Shown one piece after another: positions 3,015-42,443 of a stretch of 64,000 nt of DNA. Origin of the DNA: Candidatus Saccharimonadales bacterium (GTDB lineage: Bacteria > Patescibacteriota > Saccharimonadia > QS-5-54-17); contig JBBDUI010000002.1 in NCBI GenBank assembly GCA_040903985.1, positions 454,038 to 518,037 of the forward strand. The letters run 5' to 3'. Within the stretch, counting starts at the first letter, position 1; each line of letters starts with the position of its first letter. A model generated the notes under the pieces. The model was not told the origin of the DNA. It did no database searches and saw only the letters and a list, made by a program, of their open reading frames with translations. The position numbers and the translations under genes were made by a program.

Positions 3015-3824
3015 ATGAGAAAGCTACGTCTTATAAGCGGTGTAATCCTAGTCTTTGCAGCTCTAGCATACGGTAGTTGGTGGTATACCGATCAGGCTAA
3101 CACTGCCACGGCTAATTCTCGGCCAACAAGTGACGTTACTATTACGGCTAGCCAAGCCGAGCAGTGGGTGGCCGCTTGGTATGCGGCTGACCTAGCCGCC
3201 GCAGAACTTCTGACCACTCCGCCGGCTATTACCGGTGATAATGCAGCCGATACGCGCATTCAGCAACTAGCTGAGCGCCGTGGTTATCGCCTCCAGCCTG
3301 TAGCGGAGGGCGAGTTGGTCGAGTATGAAGGGGTGGAGCTACAGCCGGTGGTGATCCCGGCATGGAAAGAGCTAAGAGCTATAGCTGAGGCCGAGGGTTT
3401 ACGTCTCGGTCTGGCAGCCGGTTACAGCTCGATCGAGACAGAGCGTCAGCTGTTCTTAGCCGAACTAGAGGCGCGGGCAGAGGCACTTATCGGCCGAAGT
3501 TATACCTCGGCTCAGATTGCTAGTGGTACGGCCGATGTCATAATTAACGATATCCTGCGCTCTCAGCCCGCGCCGGGCTACTCGAAACATCACGCTGGTT
3601 ATGCTATAGATATTAGCGACTTGAGCCTAGAGGGCTCTGAGCTCAATTTTCGTGATGGTCCGGTCTATGCTTGGTTAGCAGCCGATGCTTATGCTAACGC
3701 TCGGCGCTTCGGTTTTCTACCTAGCTATCCGGCTGGTGGGCCAAGTCAGGAACTGGATAGGGGTGAGCCAAATGAGTTTATCTGGGTGGATATAATTTGC
3801 ATCAATGCGGAGTGTAGCGAATAG
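3015..3824 (+). CDS. D-alanyl-D-alanine carboxypeptidase, VanY/peptidase M15B-like, membrane anchored
   Basis: N-terminal TM segment. SKHHAGYAIDI matches the SxHxxGxAxD zinc-binding motif of VanY/LAS-family peptidases. Confidence 0.7.
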   Translation: MRKLRLISGVILVFAALAYGSWWYTDQANTATANSRPTSDVTITASQAEQWVAAWYAADLAAAELLTTPPAITGDNAADTRIQQLAERRGYRLQPVAEGELVEYEGVELQPVVIPAWKELRAIAEAEGLRLGLAAGYSSIETERQLFLAELEARAEALIGRSYTSAQIASGTADVIINDILRSQPAPGYSKHHAGYAIDISDLSLEGSELNFRDGPVYAWLAADAYANARRFGFLPSYPAGGPSQELDRGEPNEFIWVDIICINAECSE

Positions 3825-7135: not shown

Positions 7136-8332
7136 CTACTCTGCTGCCGGCCAGATAGCAGTATCCTCTAGCTCTTGGGGTAGAAAGCCGGCTTCGGGCT
7201 TAAAATCGGCCTGCCACTTATAGTCTTGGCCGTAACCGAGATCTTTCATTAGTTGGGTCGGGGCGTTACGGACATGTAGAGGAACTGGAGCGTCCGGGTA
7301 GGCTTTGGCCGCCTGTAACGCTGCTCCCATGGCATCGGCTACGGCACGGGACTTGGGCGAACGGGCCAGCACACTAGCACAGTGAAAAAGACTGTACTGG
7401 GCTTCCGGCAGACCGATGCGCTCGACCGCTTCGAAAGTTGCTACGGCTAAGTTCAGCGCGCCGTTTACCGCGATACCGATGTCTTCGCTGGCAAATATGA
7501 CCAGACGGCGGGCGATAAATTTGGGATCCTCTCCGGCCGCTAACATGCGGGCTAGATAGTAGAGCGAAGCGTCGATATCACTACCGCGCAGTGATTTTAT
7601 AAAGGCGGAGATAAGGTTGTAGTGCATCTCGCCAGCCTTATCGAAGCCAGGGATACGAGTCTGTGCCGCCGTCTTTACTATCTTTGGGGTCACCTGCTTA
7701 CCCTGACTAATCTGCAGACTTAGTTCTAGGGTGTTAAGAGCGGTCCGAGCGTCTCCGGCTGAGACCTCTACTAGATATTCCAGTCCCTTGGAGCTGAGAC
7801 GGCTAAGCGACTTTAGCCGTTTAGCCGCACTGCGGACGATCGTTTTAATCTCTTCTGGCTTGAGCGGCTCTAGCACTAGTACACGGCTGCGGGAGAGTAG
7901 TGGACGGATAACTTCGAAACTGGGATTCTCAGTGGTAGCACCAATGAGAGTGATAAGCCCGCTTTCTACGTGGGGCAGGAAGGCGTCTTGCTGAGCCTTG
8001 TTGAAGCGATGGATTTCATCGACAAAGAGGATAGTGTTGAGCTGTAAGCGTTGGTTCTCCTCGGCTCGCTTAATCACTTGGCGTACATCTTCCAGTCGAG
8101 CGGTGACTGCACTGACCTCGACAAAATCGGCCTCGGTGATCTGGGCTAGAATGCGGGCCAGTGTCGTCTTGCCACTGCCCGGTGGTCCCCAGAGGATGAG
8201 CGAGCTGAGCTGCTTCTGCTCGGCCAATTGACGGACTAGTCCGTCTGGGCCCAAAAGATGTTCTTGGCCGATAAAGTCGCTTAGCTCCTGTGGGCGCATC
8301 TGTTCAGCTAGTGGGGTGTACGTCGACTCCAT
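7136..8332 (-). CDS. rarA: replication-associated recombination protein A (AAA+ ATPase RarA/MgsA)
   Basis: Walker A LWGPPGSGKTTLA, an AAA+ core, and the characteristic RarA C-terminal domains. Confidence 0.85.
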   Translation of the reverse strand: MESTYTPLAEQMRPQELSDFIGQEHLLGPDGLVRQLAEQKQLSSLILWGPPGSGKTTLARILAQITEADFVEVSAVTARLEDVRQVIKRAEENQRLQLNTILFVDEIHRFNKAQQDAFLPHVESGLITLIGATTENPSFEVIRPLLSRSRVLVLEPLKPEEIKTIVRSAAKRLKSLSRLSSKGLEYLVEVSAGDARTALNTLELSLQISQGKQVTPKIVKTAAQTRIPGFDKAGEMHYNLISAFIKSLRGSDIDASLYYLARMLAAGEDPKFIARRLVIFASEDIGIAVNGALNLAVATFEAVERIGLPEAQYSLFHCASVLARSPKSRAVADAMGAALQAAKAYPDAPVPLHVRNAPTQLMKDLGYGQDYKWQADFKPEAGFLPQELEDTAIWPAAE

Positions 8333-8407
8333 ATCGTCCAGTATAGCATTCCATTCGCTTTATGTTCGCCTAATTCTATACATGCGACCTCCTGCCCCAC
8401 CACCCAA

Positions 8408-8447
8408 AATCTTCAAAAAGTGTCCGATCGGACACTTTTTGAAGATT
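8408..8447. repeat. 40-bp perfect palindrome, copy 1 (AATCTTCAAAAAGTGTCCGATCGGACACTTTTTGAAGATT)
   Basis: Perfectly self-complementary. It lies in the divergent rarA/helicase intergenic region and is immediately followed by TATAAT. Confidence 0.8.
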
Positions 8448-8547
8448 ATTTATAATCCTAGCACTGGCAATGGGTGATAACGTGCTCGAGAGGGTAGGAA
8501 TTAGTAGGGATAGATACGGGTAGGCCATAGTTTATACTAGGCTTTAC

Positions 8548-11500
8548 ATGATGGATTTTGAGCAAGAGTATAAGAAGCTGAATCAGGCCCAAGCGGCGGC
8601 GGTCGATGCTATCGACGGACCGGTCATGGTGGTGGCTGGTCCTGGTACCGGTAAGACACAGCTTTTGAGTATGCGCGTGGCGAACATCTTGCGTCGAACC
8701 GATGCGCTGGCGCGTAACATTCTCTGCCTGACCTTTACCGAGTCGGCCGCTACAGCTATGCGGGAGCGCTTGCTGAGCTTAATCGGCTCCGAAGCTCATA
8801 AAGTTGCTATTCATACTTTTCACAGTTTCGGGGTAGAAGTGATCAATCAATACCCCGAGTACTTTTATAACGGTGCCCGTTTTACTCCATCAGATGAAGT
8901 GCTGCAGATCGAAGTGATCGAATCTATCCTGCGCTCCTTACCGCACGATAGTCCACTAGCTGCCACTATGAATGAGAAATTTGTCTATTTGCGCAGTATT
9001 AATATGGCGATTGGGCACTTGAAGAAAGCCGGTCTGACACCGACAGACTTGCGGCAGATTCTAGCGGATAATCGGCAGGCTTGTGATATGGCTGAGCCTA
9101 TTTTGCAGGAAGCCTTCGCTCTACCGCGGTTGAGTAAAAGCCATCTACCGCGCATCCGCGAGTATTACGACCAGCTGCCGAGCGGTAACGTAAGCGATCT
9201 ACCGGAGCCATTCCGGCCGTTGTTTGAAATCATGATCCACTCACTATCAGAAGCTCTAGCGGAGGCGGAGGAACTGGGGAAGACGACTCCGATAACGGCT
9301 TGGCGACTTAGTTGGTTAGAGAAGAATACCGCCGGGGATTACGTCTTTCGTGACCGTAAACGCGATCAACGTCTGAGTGCGCTGGTGGAAGTTTATGAAG
9401 GTTATAACGCAGAGCTTCTCGTCCAGGAACGCTACGATTTTTCCGACATGGTACTTCAGGTTTTGCGCGCCCTCGAGCATGAAGATGGTCTCCGCTTTAG
9501 TCTGCAGGAACAGTATCAGTATCTGATGGTCGATGAGTTCCAGGATACAAACGACGGCCAACTTCGCTTACTCTATCTTCTAGCTGATCACCCCGTACAC
9601 GAGGGCAGTCCTGATGTGATGGTGGTGGGTGACGACGACCAGGCAGTGTACAAGTTCCAAGGAGCGGAGGTGAATAACGTCCTGCATTTTCAGCGTAAAT
9701 ATGCCGGGCTGCAGCTAGTGACCTTGACGGAGAACTATCGCTCTCACCAGGCTGTATTAGAGGCAGCTAGGGAGGTGATCACCCAGGGTGAGGTACGGCT
9801 GGAGACGGAACTAGAAATGATAGATAAATCACTCCGCGCAGTAAATAGGAGCGTTCCGATCGGTGAGATCAAGCTCTCTCGACTGGAGACGGCCGAGCAT
9901 GAGTATGGTTTTGTGGCCAGTGAGATTAAACGGCTGATCGCTAGTGGTGTCCCGGCTGGCGAGATCGCCGTGCTCGGTCGTCAACACCGCTATTTAGAGG
10001 AGTTGATGGCTCACCTGCGCGCGGCCGACATCCCGGTAGTGTATGAGCGGCGCAGTGACGCCTTGCGTGAGTTTCATATCGAACAGTTAATCGATATGGC
10101 CACACTAGTGCATCTGCTTAGTCAGGGTGATCAGACTGCGGCAAACGAATATCTTTCTCGAGTCTTAAGCTATCCCTTCTGGGAGCTCGACCCGGTAGTC
10201 CTTTGGCGCTTGAGTCGACAGGCCTATGAAGAGCGGCGACTGTGGCTCGACATCATGTTGGAGGGTGGAGGTAGATTAGAGCGAATTGCACGTTGGCTGC
10301 TCGAGATCGCTCAAGCAGCTCAGGCCGAACCGGTCGAGTATGTACTGGATAGGCTGATCGGCGTCGAAGCGAAAAAAGAGTTTGTCTCGCCTTATCGCAG
10401 CTATTATTTCTCTGCAGATCGGTTCGAGCACGCCCGTGGCGAGTATCTGGTCTTTCTCTCCTCCTTGCGTTTGCTACGTAATCGCCTGCGCGAGTATCGG
10501 CATGGACAAACGATTTATCTGAGTGATTTTATCGATTTCATCGAGGTGCATCGCACTAATCATATGCCCATAGTGGATGAAACACCTTTTGTCAGCACGG
10601 ATGACGCCGTGCACGTGATGACGGCGCATAAATCGAAAGGGCTTGAGTTTCATACTGTCTTTATTATCAGCGCCCAAGAATCGGTTTGGACTAGTAGCGG
10701 TGGGCGGCAGGAGATTACCTTTCCGGTTAACCTGCCGATTACTCCACCGGGCGACGCCTTCGATGATCAGCTACGCCTCTTCTTTGTCGCTATGACTCGG
10801 GCTAAGTCAAACCTCTACATTACCAGCTACCGCCATGGTAGCGGCGGTAGAGAGGTGTTACCAGTGCCGTTTCTACCACCAGAACGGTTTGTCGATATCG
10901 ATGGGATTGCGGCGCCAGAGAGCATTGAAGTGCTGGAGACGGCCTGGCAGTCATATCATCCGCTGCCTAAGAGCGCTGATGCGCAGGCCGTGCTTAATCC
11001 GGTACTTGAGACCTATCAGCTTAACGTCACACACTTCACTAAGTTCCTAGATTTAATCAATGGCGGTCCGCATCGCTTCCTGCTCGAAAGCTTGCTGCAG
11101 TTTCCGCAGGCAAAGAGTCCGGTATCGGCATATGGCACGGCTGTGCATGCTGCACTACAGGAAGCCTACACAGAGCTGAAGCAGGGTAATCGACTCAGTG
11201 TAGCCGAGGTAATCAGCTGCTTTGAGCGACAGCTATTAAACCAGCGCTTAAAAGAGCCGGATTATTTGAAGTATCTCGATCTTGGTCACCGTGAGCTAGG
11301 CATATATCTAGAGCAACGTTACGAGCTATTCGCGTCAGAGCACTTGGTCGAGACTAGCTTCGCTAAACAAGGTGTAGCGGTGGGCGCCGCACGGCTTTCC
11401 GGTCGGCTAGATAAGATCATTTTGGATAAAGATAACCGGCGGGCTGAAGTGTACGACTTTAAGACTGGTAAGGCACTGCAGTCTTGGAGCCGCCGTTCGG

Positions 11501-11808
11501 GGAGCGAGGGGCTAAAGGCTTGGCGCTACCAGAAACAGCTAATTTTTTATAAGTTATTGGTCGAACAGTCGCGTACGTGGGGCGAATACAGGGTTGATCT
11601 TGGCTACCTCGAGTTTATCAAGCCGATCGAGGGTAAGGTCATCCTGCTCGAATACAGCATGGAGGCAGATGAGGTAGAACGGACCACCCAGTTGATTCAG
11701 GCTGTTTGGGGCTGTATCATGGCGCTCGATTTCCCGGATGTGACGCAGTATGAGAAGAGTCTAGCCGGTATCCGTCTGTTTGAGAACGATCTGCTTAAGC
11801 GGAGCTAG
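8548..11808 (+). CDS. UvrD/PcrA-family ATP-dependent DNA helicase with C-terminal PD-(D/E)xK-like nuclease domain
   Basis: N-terminal helicase Walker A VVAGPGTGKTQL and UvrD-like motifs. A C-terminal region with YDFKTGK resembles the AddAB/Cas4-type nuclease motif. Confidence 0.75.
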   Translation: MMDFEQEYKKLNQAQAAAVDAIDGPVMVVAGPGTGKTQLLSMRVANILRRTDALARNILCLTFTESAATAMRERLLSLIGSEAHKVAIHTFHSFGVEVINQYPEYFYNGARFTPSDEVLQIEVIESILRSLPHDSPLAATMNEKFVYLRSINMAIGHLKKAGLTPTDLRQILADNRQACDMAEPILQEAFALPRLSKSHLPRIREYYDQLPSGNVSDLPEPFRPLFEIMIHSLSEALAEAEELGKTTPITAWRLSWLEKNTAGDYVFRDRKRDQRLSALVEVYEGYNAELLVQERYDFSDMVLQVLRALEHEDGLRFSLQEQYQYLMVDEFQDTNDGQLRLLYLLADHPVHEGSPDVMVVGDDDQAVYKFQGAEVNNVLHFQRKYAGLQLVTLTENYRSHQAVLEAAREVITQGEVRLETELEMIDKSLRAVNRSVPIGEIKLSRLETAEHEYGFVASEIKRLIASGVPAGEIAVLGRQHRYLEELMAHLRAADIPVVYERRSDALREFHIEQLIDMATLVHLLSQGDQTAANEYLSRVLSYPFWELDPVVLWRLSRQAYEERRLWLDIMLEGGGRLERIARWLLEIAQAAQAEPVEYVLDRLIGVEAKKEFVSPYRSYYFSADRFEHARGEYLVFLSSLRLLRNRLREYRHGQTIYLSDFIDFIEVHRTNHMPIVDETPFVSTDDAVHVMTAHKSKGLEFHTVFIISAQESVWTSSGGRQEITFPVNLPITPPGDAFDDQLRLFFVAMTRAKSNLYITSYRHGSGGREVLPVPFLPPERFVDIDGIAAPESIEVLETAWQSYHPLPKSADAQAVLNPVLETYQLNVTHFTKFLDLINGGPHRFLLESLLQFPQAKSPVSAYGTAVHAALQEAYTELKQGNRLSVAEVISCFERQLLNQRLKEPDYLKYLDLGHRELGIYLEQRYELFASEHLVETSFAKQGVAVGAARLSGRLDKIILDKDNRRAEVYDFKTGKALQSWSRRSGSEGLKAWRYQKQLIFYKLLVEQSRTWGEYRVDLGYLEFIKPIEGKVILLEYSMEADEVERTTQLIQAVWGCIMALDFPDVTQYEKSLAGIRLFENDLLKRS

Positions 11809-17562: not shown

Positions 17563-18207
17563 CTACTCGCTAGTTTCAGCTAGGGCGCTATCGATGATTT
17601 CGCGCCAGACCTCGATCGAGGTCGGATTTTGCTCTAAGGCTTCGCCATTAAGGTAGAAGGTAGGAGTACTGTTAACGCCTAGCTGTTGGGCGATAGCGGT
17701 ATCGCGATCGACGCGGGAGTTAACGGCGGCGAAATCACTCTCGTACTGCTCGAGATCGAGGCCTAGCTCTTCAGCGTAAGATTCGAATGTGGTTCGAGCC
17801 TGGGCGTCGCCACTCCAGTTTTGCTGTCGTTCAAACAGGAGGTCGTGCATCTCCCAGAAACGATCCTGTCGCCCGGCCGCTTCGCTAGCCCGGGCGGCAT
17901 CGTAAGCCTGGGCATGAATCTGGGTTAAGGGGAAGTGACGGTAAACCAGTCGGACGTCGTCAGGGTACTCGGCTAGCATTTGCTGGATTAGGGGCTCGGC
18001 TCCTCCACAGGCTGGACATTGGAAATCGCTATATTCAATTAGAGTGAGGGCAGCATCTTCGGGGCCGCGAGTGTGGTCTTCAGCCGTGATAGCGTGTGGC
18101 TCATCCACGTTAGCGGCGGGAGCGTTGGCATTATCGCCAAATAGCCAGACCGCACCGATCATGACGATTACTACTGTTGCCAGTGCTACCCAAAAACCTT
18201 TCCCCAT
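17563..18207 (-). CDS. DsbA-family thiol:disulfide oxidoreductase, membrane anchored
   Basis: N-terminal TM segment and a CPAC active-site motif in a thioredoxin-fold context. Confidence 0.7.
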   Translation of the reverse strand: MGKGFWVALATVVIVMIGAVWLFGDNANAPAANVDEPHAITAEDHTRGPEDAALTLIEYSDFQCPACGGAEPLIQQMLAEYPDDVRLVYRHFPLTQIHAQAYDAARASEAAGRQDRFWEMHDLLFERQQNWSGDAQARTTFESYAEELGLDLEQYESDFAAVNSRVDRDTAIAQQLGVNSTPTFYLNGEALEQNPTSIEVWREIIDSALAETSE

Positions 18208-35796: not shown

Positions 35797-36180
35797 ATGA
35801 AGCCAGAATCAGGTATCAGGATTGAAGATACTCCGGTTGGCATAGTAACTACTAGTGTCGGCACTCTCCCCTACGGGCGTGAATATCCCGCTCGTCAAAC
35901 TACCATCGAGTTTAGAGAGCCGATTCCAGTGGCATCGGTTGCTTACGAGATAGCTCTAGCGGAGAAACCATTCATGGACCAGCTAGTCGAACTGAAGGCC
36001 GAACCTGCCCCGGCTTGGTGGCAGCGTGGTGCCGAAGCGCGTAGACAGCGGTGGGATCGTTCGCAAGAGTGTGGCCAGCTTATACTCAATGCCCAAGCAG
36101 CAAGCAGGGATAGGAGTAGAGAATTGGTACGAGAAACCCCCTACCTTGAGCCTATACTGTTCCGAGCCGCCCAAGATTAG
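35797..36180 (+). CDS. hypothetical protein
   Basis: ORF only. A weak-RBS start 8 nt after recX. Confidence 0.3.
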   Translation: MKPESGIRIEDTPVGIVTTSVGTLPYGREYPARQTTIEFREPIPVASVAYEIALAEKPFMDQLVELKAEPAPAWWQRGAEARRQRWDRSQECGQLILNAQAASRDRSRELVRETPYLEPILFRAAQD

Positions 36181-36268
36181 TTTCAAGGCCAGCTCTACAT
36201 AGCTAGTCTAGCCTCGCAAGCATACTGGTATAACTATCTAATACAACCATTGTCATAGTCACAGCGAT

Positions 36269-36308
36269 AATCTTCAAAAAGTGTCCGATCGGACACTTTT
36301 TGAAGATT
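36269..36308. repeat. 40-bp perfect palindrome, copy 2 (identical to copy 1)
   Basis: Identical 40-mer between convergent genes. Followed by ATTT. Confidence 0.8.
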
Positions 36309-36338
36309 ATTTCGAACTAGACAGAATGGAGCAGCAGA

Positions 36339-37803: not shown

Positions 37804-37851
37804 ATATTTGTACTAAATCTCTCACGATCGTAAGAAATTTAGTACAAATAT
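37804..37851. repeat. perfect 15-bp inverted repeat ATATTTGTACTAAAT-N18-ATTTAGTACAAATAT
   Basis: Lies 20 nt after the tsaB stop. No T-tract follows. Confidence 0.5.
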
Positions 37852-41983: not shown

Positions 41984-42023
41984 AATCTTCAAAACCTGTC
42001 CGATCGGACACTTTTTGAAGATT
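41984..42023. repeat. 40-bp palindrome, copy 3 (two substitutions in the left arm)
   Basis: AATCTTCAAAACCTGTCCGATCGGACACTTTTTGAAGATT. Lies 33 nt upstream of the tRNA-like fragment. Confidence 0.75.
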
Positions 42024-42056
42024 AAAGTGGCGGAAGGTGCCGATCAATGTGTACAC

Positions 42057-42103
42057 CGGGGTGTGGCCTAGTGGCTAAGGCGTCCGCCTGAGGCGGAAGA
42101 TCG
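42057..42103 (+). pseudogene. 5' tRNA gene fragment (acceptor 5' strand, D arm, and an anticodon arm with a 5-nt loop)
   Basis: 26 nt identical to the 5' end of the downstream tRNA-Pro (CGGGGTGTGGCCTAGTGGCTAAGGCG). The anticodon arm TCCGC-CTGAG-GCGGA is defective. It shares AGATCG, then diverges. No T arm is present. Confidence 0.5.
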
Positions 42104-42115
42104 GGGGTAAGAAGC

Positions 42116-42355
42116 GTGTTTTGTGTATATGTGCTTCAGAATTCAATAACCCGCAAAAGATACATTGGATATACTTCTAGTCTCGAAGAGCGTATCAGAA
42201 AGCATAATACGAATCACAAAGGCTACACTGGCCAGGCCGGTGTCTGGTCTGTGATTTATAGCGAATATTATGAGAGTAAAAGAGATGCGATCTATCGCGA
42301 GAAGTTTCTTAAATCAGGAAAGGGTAGAGAATTTCTTGATAGTTTGACAGAATAA
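42116..42355 (+). CDS. GIY-YIG nuclease family protein (YhbQ/UPF0213-like, 79 aa)
   Basis: VYVLQN...RYIGYTSSLEERIRKHN matches the GIY-(x10)-YIG core, with a downstream conserved Arg/Glu region. GTG start immediately after the tRNA fragment. Confidence 0.65.
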   Translation: MFCVYVLQNSITRKRYIGYTSSLEERIRKHNTNHKGYTGQAGVWSVIYSEYYESKRDAIYREKFLKSGKGREFLDSLTE

Positions 42356-42367
42356 GTGAGTACCTAT

Positions 42368-42443
42368 CGGGGTGTGGCCTAGTGGCTAAGGCGCCTGCTT
42401 TGGGAGCAGGAGATCGTGAGTTCGAGTCTCACCACCCCGACCA
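42368..42443 (+). tRNA. tRNA-Pro (anticodon UGG), CCA encoded
   Basis: A cloverleaf can be built by hand. Acceptor CGGGGTG/CACCCCG, anticodon stem CCTGC/GCAGG with loop TTTGGGA, T arm GTGAG-TTCGAGT-CTCAC. Confidence 0.8.

Follow-up and report, generated by a model that had tools for sequence, protein, structure and literature searches.

Repetitive extragenic palindromic (REP) elements are extragenic palindromes of 21-65 nt, and the gene of the REP-associated tyrosine transposase (RAYT) is flanked by REPs (PMC3184786). Promoter-coupled terminators have also been described, and one terminator palindrome is at the same time a LexA site (preprint 10.64898/2026.08.19.745784). Next to nothing is known of the ways in which Patescibacteria (CPR, for Candidate Phyla Radiation) initiate, terminate and regulate transcription, and very few members of the group are cultivable. 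Here we describe a 40-nt perfect palindrome present three times in a stretch of 64,000 nucleotides (the window) from a Candidatus Saccharimonadales bacterium (assembly GCA_040903985.1, contig JBBDUI010000002.1, positions 454,038 to 518,037). On balance, we favor the reading that this 40-mer is the species form of a hairpin repeat found across the Patescibacteria, which would act as a bidirectional terminator, would carry in its center the operator of a PaaX-like regulator, and has been copied recently in a REP-like manner. A search of the accessible literature found nothing that links PaaX-like or Cas2-like proteins, or palindromic repeats of this kind, with the Patescibacteria.

The palindrome family resembles the REP/RAYT system in being made of short stem-loop extragenic palindromes, single or clustered and mostly located after genes. 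Roles in transcript ends and protein binding have been proposed for REPs, and here too a dedicated gene is flanked on both sides (PMC3184786). There are also differences. The family palindromes are perfect through the center and A/T-rich with internal A5/T5 tracts, and their center is shared across classes of the phylum, whereas REPs are species-specific. The GTAG/GGAG 5' tetranucleotide is absent from the flank profile of the family and from the three copies. The flanked gene encodes a PaaX-like protein with a winged helix-turn-helix (wHTH) and a Cas2 fold instead of a Y1 (IS200/IS605-type) enzyme, and no Y1_Tnp match was found.

Bidirectional intrinsic terminators share with the family the order of A tract, G+C stem, loop and T tract, which reads the same on both strands, and the enrichment between convergent genes. 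A -10-like box after the T tract, at copy 1 in the window and upstream of PaaX-like genes, recalls the promoter-coupled terminators. Ordinary terminators, in contrast, are not sequence-identical repeats, and they have neither a phylum-wide 28-nt center nor complementary arms beyond the U tract. MITEs (miniature inverted-repeat transposable elements) such as Correia, RUP and BOX are likewise small, non-coding, dispersed, hairpin-forming and gained in a lineage-specific way. Typical MITEs measure ~100-400 bp (PMC3184786), and the 40-nt element is far smaller. It lacks target-site duplications as well as a core enclosed by terminal repeats, and no parent insertion sequence was found for it. The element is similar to a REP or a bidirectional terminator, and the RAYT gene and GTAG motif that define REPs are lacking. 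A REP/MITE-like element had been proposed in an initial annotation of the window; the notion of a spreading repeat gains from the absence of the copies in relatives, while the lack of the REP hallmarks and of the MITE duplications speaks against the two names.

Three copies of a self-complementary 40-mer in the window

The 40-mer AATCTTCAAAAAGTGTCCGATCGGACACTTTTTGAAGATT is exactly self-complementary and identical in copies 1 and 2 (Table 1). Copy 3 carries two adjacent substitutions in the left arm only, and the right arm is uncompensated. A sequence search of the window confirmed what the initial annotation had reported of these copies, and the contexts given there (divergent rarA and helicase genes, convergent genes, and 33 nt before a tRNA fragment) agree with the gene calls. 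Matches to the 40-mer were obtained in 0 of 100 dinucleotide-preserving shuffles of the window. No further whole or half copies exist in the window at ≤3 mismatches, nor does TGTCC-N4-GGACA occur in the 64 kb outside the three copies; all six half-sites lie inside the three palindromes. No similarity was found among the flanks of the three copies beyond the 40-mer, which indicates that the palindrome alone is the repeated unit. The immediate flanks (AA/AT, AT/AT and AC/AA) show no consistent target-site duplication, and there is no internal core. The central GATC within a PvuI site, also noticed before, is present as CGATCG. This hexamer occurs 47 times in the window versus ~16 expected at 50% G+C, a ~3-fold over-representation, and is thus not avoided.

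Copy 1 is located between two divergent genes, upstream of both, at a distance of 75 nt from the rarA start and of 100 nt from the start of a UvrD/PD-(D/E)XK helicase gene. Copy 2 begins 88 nt past the stop codon of orf127 (plus strand) and ends 30 nt past the stop codon of the PRC-barrel gene (minus strand). The gene order upstream of it is recA-recX-orf127. Copy 3 begins 80 nt past the orf175 stop codon and ends 33 nt ahead of the tRNA-Pro 5' fragment. Pfam searches with the open reading frames (ORFs) adjoining the copies gave no informative match.

Table 1. Coordinates of the palindromes and neighboring features in the window
Feature	Position	Strand	Description
rarA	7136-8332	-	Diverges from the helicase gene
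Copy 1	8408-8447		40-nt perfect palindrome; center TGTCCGATCGGACA at 8421-8434; divergent intergenic region
Promoter-like site	8429-8456	+	CGGACA, 16 nt, TATAAT (8451-8456); right half of copy 1; faces the helicase gene
Helicase gene	8548-11808	+	UvrD/PD-(D/E)XK helicase
Short palindrome	17608-17623		GACCTCGATCGAGGTC, CGATCG-centered
orf127	35797-36180	+	ORF between recX and the convergent PRC-barrel gene; no Pfam match
Copy 2	36267-36310		44-nt perfect palindrome holding the identical 40-mer (36269-36308); convergent genes
Second palindrome	37804-37851		48 nt, 92% self-complementary, CGATCG-centered, 23 nt past the tsaB stop codon; sequence unlike the 40-mer
Copy 3	41984-42023		40-mer with AG>CC at 41994-41995
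tRNA-Pro 5' fragment	42057-42103		First 27 nt (42056-42082) identical to the real gene
GIY-YIG ORF	42116-42355		79 aa
tRNA-Pro	42368-42443		Intact gene

On either strand, the 40-mer forms a stem of 18 bp that is capped by a GAUC loop. The folding energy of copy 1 as RNA is -26 to -28 kcal/mol (z = -6.5 to -8.9, either strand), and 65-nt segments give -26 to -30 kcal/mol (z = -6.5 to -9.9). The inner 16-mer contributes -8.1, the 26-mer -13.3 and the 40-mer alone -25.2 kcal/mol, with both strands alike. The hairpin of copy 3 contains a 2x2 internal loop and is less stable (-17.6 kcal/mol vs -25.2 for the 40-mer). The inner part reads A5, GUGUCC, GAUC, GGACAC and U5, and the outer arms AAUCUUC/GAAGAUU lie beyond the U tract. 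In the inner hairpin GGACAC is followed by U5, with A5 on the other side; in the full 40-nt hairpin the U tract is paired and no consistent U run comes after it. As predicted from its sequence, the inner part has the anatomy of a bidirectional intrinsic terminator. With Rfam 15, only tRNAs reached the gathering score. Nothing overlapped the palindromes, also at E≤1, where weak sub-threshold matches in the window (RF04354 and RF02621) fall elsewhere.

A TATAAT hexamer had been reported to start 5 nt after copy 1; it is present, and starts 4 nt after the end of the palindrome. Together with CGGACA it forms a promoter-like site detected by a consensus scan only (10 of 12 positions matched), which may function as a promoter toward the helicase gene. 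Apart from this site, a TG-extended -10-like box (TGCTATACT or TTTATACT) is located ~10 nt before the starts of both rarA and the helicase gene (8333-8347 and 8530-8547), and such boxes are also found in the related loci L072-L076 (loci are cited by our own numbers). The position of these boxes suggests very short leaders for rarA and the helicase.

A shared center with compensated arms in Patescibacteria

The center of the family comprises 28 nt, C-A5-NN-TGTCC-GATC-GGACA-NN-T5-G; a search pattern for the center is CAAAANNTGTCCNNNNGGACANNTTTTG. Besides the window, the family is represented on ~60 contigs, most of them from Patescibacteria. A scan with AAAANNTGTCCGATCGGACANNTTTT found 13 GTDB loci and 56 metagenome loci. 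The exact outer arms (pattern CTTCAAAANNTGTCCGATCGGACANNTTTTGAAG) had 0 matches in the JGI metagenomes, a looser form of the center had 0 matches in IMG/VR, and the 40-mer of the window is absent from the GTDB species-representative genomes. Elsewhere the exact 40-mer was found only in a Logan assembly (SRR27977661) that encodes an identical RarA, which means that it is present in two independent assemblies of the species. As to whether the repeat recurs outside this genome, a point raised in the initial annotation, the answer is split: since no exact-arm match exists in the GTDB representatives, JGI or IMG/VR, the 40-mer is private to this species, and its center is widespread. Most of the named GTDB matches are Patescibacteria (Saccharibacteria, Uhrbacteria and 'Patescibacteria group'). 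The few matches from Bacteroidota and Bacillota (Anoxybacteroides, Larkinella, Flavobacteriales and Chitinophagaceae) all have the form AAAAG(C/T)TGTCCGATCGGACA(G/A)CTTTT and look like simple independent terminators.

The search pattern specified no more than 13 positions in each arm, yet almost all family matches are perfect palindromes whose arms measure 19-27 nt. Position 14, immediately beyond the A tract and not part of the pattern, is C in 104 of the 128 half-sites of 64 non-redundant copies. At positions 15-19 from the center there is no dominant base, yet 81-91% of the copies are paired there; pairing of the arms drops to background by about position 24. The outer arms extend 5-13 bp and differ from copy to copy, and are still Watson-Crick complementary. 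In a covariation count on 59 family sequences, 91.4% of the cells were paired vs 71.0% in shuffles, and two-sided changes were observed at 15 of 20 pairs. The covariation score was 0.504 vs 0.12, no shuffle out of 500 scored as high, and slid controls gave 0.07-0.13. The hairpin fold is kept by compensatory changes. G-U pairs are rare in the family hairpins, which fits a need for pairing in both strands or in the DNA itself. In a single metagenome sample (Ga0164318), at least 12 contigs carry one subfamily with an identical center, and their outer arms are related to each other and individually compensated (ccccgtgc, ccccatgc, cctcgtgc, ccctatgc, cctgatgc and others).

Relative to genes, 22 family copies are found in convergent, 20 in tandem and 5 in divergent contexts (chi-square P = 0.0013 vs 1:2:1, simple ORF model). 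Copy 3 was scored as convergent in this count and becomes tandem once the GIY-YIG ORF and tRNA-Pro are included. The copies are intergenic throughout, except for one inside a doubtful 107-aa ORF, and often lie 5-50 nt past a stop codon. Copies 2 and 3 have such terminator-like positions; copy 1, between divergent genes, does not. The placement is as expected of terminators. REP elements are placed likewise, so that placement alone does not separate a function from tolerated insertion.

Short-read assemblies of Patescibacteria contain contigs that start or end inside a family palindrome (L015 start, L006 end/L011 start, L068 start and L071 end). L015, a Logan contig of the same species, begins inside copy 1. 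The family palindromes seem to be frequent breakpoints in these assemblies. In L054, the palindrome at 3117-3148 is a hybrid of a 'ttttgctac'-type left arm and a 'gaaacaaa'-type right arm, which match two different perfect palindromes at other places (compare L046 603-648 and L048 630-675). This suggests exchange between copies at the shared center. Recombination was also considered for the palindromes of L027 and L036, for which two point differences are an equally good explanation; only L054 looks truly hybrid.

A PaaX-like gene flanked by the palindromes

In an all-vs-all comparison of the ORFs adjoining family copies, the only recurrent neighbor was a protein of 155-187 aa, encoded by 8 different genes in ~50 unique loci, with palindromes on both sides in 5 of them. 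The binomial probability of this association is 6e-6 even if 2% of all genes belong to the family. The protein matches Pfam PaaX_M (PF20803, 'PaaX central Cas2-like domain') with E = 3e-10 to 2e-20 and Cas2 more weakly; its N-terminal half resembles MarR/PadR. FD-PE, two Arg and Q-S are invariant. In an alignment with the Cas2-like protein 3EXC, the YDV Asp of the latter corresponds to the invariant FDIPE Asp. An AlphaFold model (predicted local distance difference test, pLDDT, 88.9) has its best PDB matches to E. coli PaaX (8A39) and Rv0674, followed by Lrp/AsnC and Cas2. The family amounts to 3,998 clusters at 50% identity (E≤1e-10), and its members are publicly annotated as 'hypothetical', 'Cas2' or 'PaaX'.

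The reverse test was carried out with five homologs selected by protein alone on long contigs (L077-L081). All five have a palindrome upstream and downstream. L079 carries GTCCGATCGGAC on both sides of the gene. L078 has 30-nt inverted repeats containing TGTCCGATCGAGCA, which are of the TGTCC type with a degenerate right half (GAGCA). In L081 the palindromes TGTCC-ACCT-GGACA and TGTCC-AGGT-GGACA keep the half-sites and the spacing and differ in the central 4 nt. The flanking palindromes are TACGC-GATC-GCGTA in L077 and TCCAC-GATC-GTGGA in L080, and L043 has yet another type. The half-site therefore tracks the protein lineage, and the two copies flanking one gene agree with each other. Such a pattern is expected if the protein recognizes the site, and is unexpected for terminators that are next to the gene by chance.

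In most cases the downstream palindrome starts 0-15 nt past the stop codon of the PaaX-like gene (~55 nt in L079 and L042). Upstream of 13 PaaX-like genes, the palindrome center is 26-86 nt before the start codon, and a -10-like box is located in or just after the right arm. In a 179-aa subfamily, the T5-G flank and the arm form a -35-like TTGnnn, 16-17 nt before a TATAAT-like box. Tentatively, the T5-G flank might serve as a -35 box (TTGnnn), which fits the promoters of this subfamily; beyond TTG the family-wide profile is unlike TTGACA. The gene of the 179-aa subfamily directly follows map in three distant loci (L001, L062 and L079), and such a fixed place indicates that the PaaX-like gene is a stable resident. 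In L079, a 63-nt piece of the map 3' end is duplicated across the palindrome-flanked gene (9803-9866 and 10650-10712, ~83% identical). The duplication may be the footprint of an integration by recombination.

The associated protein is similar to PaaX in its PaaX_M match, in having 8A39 as best structural match, and in the combination of an N-terminal wHTH with a Cas2-like domain. PaaX has a palindromic operator, and in the related loci only, a palindromic site likewise overlaps the promoter of the gene for the associated protein. The associated protein differs from PaaX in its length of only 155-190 aa, without the PaaX C-terminal domain, and in its scores of 28-34 bits vs a cutoff of 264 for NCBIfam PaaX; no paa genes are nearby. 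Its sites are long, dispersed, terminator-like hairpin palindromes, unlike the PaaX operator. The association of the center with the gene is shown by these loci, and the center is probably bound by the short PaaX-like regulator. The simplest reading is that the protein would be an autoregulated wHTH repressor with the palindrome center as operator and a similar palindrome as terminator. A binding site for a dimeric regulator, as suggested in the initial annotation, finds some support insofar as the family is linked to the gene of a wHTH protein in other Patescibacteria.

The 14-nt center TGTCCGATCGGACA is identical to that of rpaO (ACCTGTCCGATCGGACAGTA), the operator of the LuxR-type regulator RpaR. 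The latter is a proteobacterial quorum-sensing operator with neither A5/T5 tracts nor outer arms. It was the sole literature match to the center (LuxR-type proteins were not searched for), and we judged the resemblance to be a coincidence.

Recent gain of the three copies

Five related loci (L072-L076, RarA 72-78% identical) keep the divergent helicase/rarA pair with 75-117 nt between the genes vs 215 nt in the window. No palindrome was found in this gap in any of the five; the TGCTATACT box next to each start codon is shared between them and the window. Two further relatives, L082 (GCA_040876925.1) and L083 (GCA_050486185.1), have RecA 85-87% identical and are syntenic from recA to tRNA-Pro. 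By called genes and intergenic lengths, not by full alignment, three structural differences to the window were found in this block. The gap between recX and the PRC-barrel gene is 23-24 nt without palindrome in L082/L083 and 549 nt in the window, where ~525 nt with orf127 and copy 2 are additional. Their tRNA-Pro, present as intact gene only, directly follows HU or the next ORF, at the place where the window has copy 3, the tRNA-Pro fragment and the GIY-YIG ORF inserted. The gap from tsaB to the next gene is 115-120 nt without palindrome in L082/L083 vs 223 nt in the window, which includes the second palindrome of Table 1. All three differences contain a CGATCG-centered palindrome. orf127 has no counterpart in L082/L083. 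It may be an ORF that was inserted in this lineage, and it may also not be a real gene.

No family copies were found in ~88 kb of the relatives, vs three in 64 kb here. At equal density ~4 copies would be predicted in the relatives, and the Poisson chance of finding none is ~0.02. Since the relatives are syntenic and lack all three copies, the comparison of the sequences shows the copies as recent, lineage-specific gains. Their identity over 40 nt takes in the arms, which vary freely in other places, and means that the three were made by copying. As to the agent of copying, we found no target duplication, no transposase and no recurrent tie to the neighboring GIY-YIG gene. Within the family as a whole this gene was not a recurrent neighbor either; there is one distant match, 4.7 kb away in L013. 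In L018/L023, a far more distant relative (RecX 37% identical), two family palindromes of other subtypes are present at the same recX/PRC junction. We read this as independent occupation of a favored site.

Interpretation and alternative explanations

The initial annotation listed a REP/MITE-like repeat, a regulator site and a bidirectional hairpin as candidate roles. Each finds some support, the hairpin by covariation and a terminator-like role by placement, and the hairpin, the terminator-like center and the dispersed repeat appear to be aspects of one element and not alternatives. Under the reading that we favor, either strand forms a hairpin of ~18-22 bp. The center would act as an intrinsic terminator in both directions, with a 6-7 bp G+C stem, a GAUC loop, U5 on either strand and A5 opposite; such bidirectional termination is probable, and it would fit copies 2 and 3, which are 30-90 nt past stop codons. 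As duplex DNA, TGTCC-N4-GGACA would be the operator of the short PaaX-like regulator (wHTH plus Cas2 fold). In other Patescibacteria the gene of this regulator is bracketed by an upstream palindrome that overlaps the promoter and by a downstream one that directly follows the stop codon. Copy 1, which lies in a promoter region between divergent genes and has TATAAT just downstream, might then serve as operator or insulator rather than terminator. Its right half-site is at the -35 position of the promoter-like site, and in the relatives the likely helicase promoter is next to the start codon instead. The element would be copied to new intergenic sites as a REP-like small repeat. The pattern of conservation would follow from a dual constraint: the center must pair and be recognized and is therefore fixed, and the outer arms need only pair and therefore drift with compensation.

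Several observations weigh against this reading. A terminator has no obvious job between divergent genes, where copy 1 is found. The U tract is inside the full hairpin and nothing consistently U-rich comes after the outer arms, so that termination alone does not explain the arms. Conservation of the center among the loci found by DNA is partly circular, because TGTCCGATCGGACA was imposed by the search pattern; independent support comes from the five loci selected by protein and from position 14. A PaaX_M homolog is absent from the 64-kb window (tblastn, E<0.01), and the link of the copies in this genome to the PaaX-like protein is inferred from other Patescibacteria. Finally, a transcription factor site fails to explain three copies identical over 40 nt, for which copying is needed.

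One alternative is a purely selfish mobile repeat. The PaaX-like wHTH/Cas2-fold protein would then be the mobilizing nuclease, in parallel to REP/RAYT, and the placement after genes would reflect tolerated insertion. The identical copies with unrelated flanks, absent from the syntenic sites of relatives, are in line with this, as are the position of the PaaX-like gene between two palindromes like RAYT genes between REPs (PMC3184786), the alignment of the FDIPE Asp with the YDV Asp of 3EXC, the two arm types of L054 that hint at exchange at the center, and the several contigs that break at the palindrome. The closest structural relatives of the protein, on the other hand, are transcription factors (PaaX, Rv0674 and Lrp/AsnC) and not transposases, and the 179-aa subfamily stays after map in three distant loci, which is not the behavior of a hopping gene. 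There is no target-site duplication or conserved target at the three copies, and a conserved center with compensatory arms suggests selection on each copy. We regard a purely selfish repeat as unlikely. A hitherto undescribed repeat system of Patescibacteria in which the wHTH/Cas2-fold protein recognizes the hairpin and also maintains or spreads it, the hairpin serving as terminator, promoter piece and operator, is conceivable and seems to us equally doubtful. Less probable still is a recombination or cassette-junction site, similar to an integron attC or to a cruciform break hotspot, that marks foreign insertions. It would make sense of the CGATCG-centered palindromes in all three differences of the recA-to-tRNA-Pro block (again by called genes and lengths), of the 63-nt map duplication beside the palindrome-flanked gene in L079 and of the hybrid in L054. 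No recombinase is associated with the family, however, the GIY-YIG gene does not recur next to it, and, for the most part, the family copies occur as simple solitary hairpins in intergenic positions after genes. Integron attC sites carry extrahelical bases and conserved outer R/L boxes, and the palindromes of the family are perfect and have neither.

The remaining explanations have much lower probability. DNA uptake sequences in Neisseria and Pasteurellaceae form inverted pairs that double as terminators, and uptake sequences often form terminator stems (PMC1852404). Such a function of the 40-mer is very unlikely with 3 copies per 64 kb, vs ~1 per kb for uptake sequences, and with half-sites in the window that are never single or inside genes. 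The same center occurs across classes of Patescibacteria, and known uptake sequences are lineage-specific. In favor of uptake, Saccharibacteria are naturally transformable. The operator of a DNA-damage or repair regulon (LexA-like) is a slightly poorer candidate and is not supported here. It drew on the palindromic form, on the position of copy 1 in the divergent promoter region of rarA and the UvrD-type helicase-nuclease gene with its TATAAT, and on recA and recX upstream of copy 2. Relatives have the same gene pair without the site and with conserved TGCTATACT boxes next to the start codons; copies 2 and 3 are downstream of genes, and copy 2, which follows recA-recX-orf127, is missing in L082 and L083. 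Family copies elsewhere adjoin unrelated genes. In a tblastn search of the window with three queries, no LexA homolog came up at E≤1, in agreement with the initial annotation. Ordinary terminators that are alike by chance or convergence, or an assembly artefact, have next to no probability. The few non-Patescibacteria matches do look like simple independent terminators, but convergence cannot produce three copies that are identical over 40 nt. The repeat is also found in both assemblies of the species, and many unrelated metagenome contigs carry it in consistent placement with respect to genes. For the window copies this explanation is effectively refuted.

The phylum-wide center and one family of small DNA-binding proteins (~4,000 clusters at 50% identity) make up a testable pair of regulator and site. 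The palindrome accounts as well for the particular points at which assemblies of these genomes break, and it marks recent insertions, so that it could serve as a strain-level marker. Should the protein also propagate the element, this would amount to a novel type of selfish or domesticated repeat system. It would be analogous to REP/RAYT, with a Cas2-fold protein in place of an HUH transposase, and would provide these tiny genomes with a portable module for the punctuation of transcription under the control of one regulator.

Other palindromes and neighboring features

The second palindrome after tsaB has the center CTCAC-GATC-GTAAG, which resembles the TCCAC-GATC-GTGGA flanking the PaaX-like gene of L080, and it is possibly related to the 40-mer family. 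The short palindrome at 17608-17623 (Table 1) has the same central hexamer. Downstream of copy 3, the tRNA-Pro 5' fragment is followed by the GIY-YIG ORF and then by the intact tRNA-Pro gene; fragment and ORF look as if they stem from an insertion with partial duplication of the tRNA gene.

Three GTDB metagenome-assembled genomes labeled 'uncultured Gammaproteobacteria' (L002, L006 and L011) carry family palindromes. The palindrome of L002 adjoins a map-like gene with similarity to those at L001 and L062, which are Patescibacteria loci; the three contigs labeled as Gammaproteobacteria may be mis-binned. Other perfect palindromes of 32-48 nt without a loop are found on the same Patescibacteria contigs, at L023 439-476, L029 1259-1294, L046 37-84, L063 10467-10502 and L037 7748-7779, with the centers TCTATAGA, CTGCAG, GCGATCGC, CATATG and GGCGATCGCC, respectively. 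In these genomes, hairpins seem in general to be perfectly symmetrical through the center.

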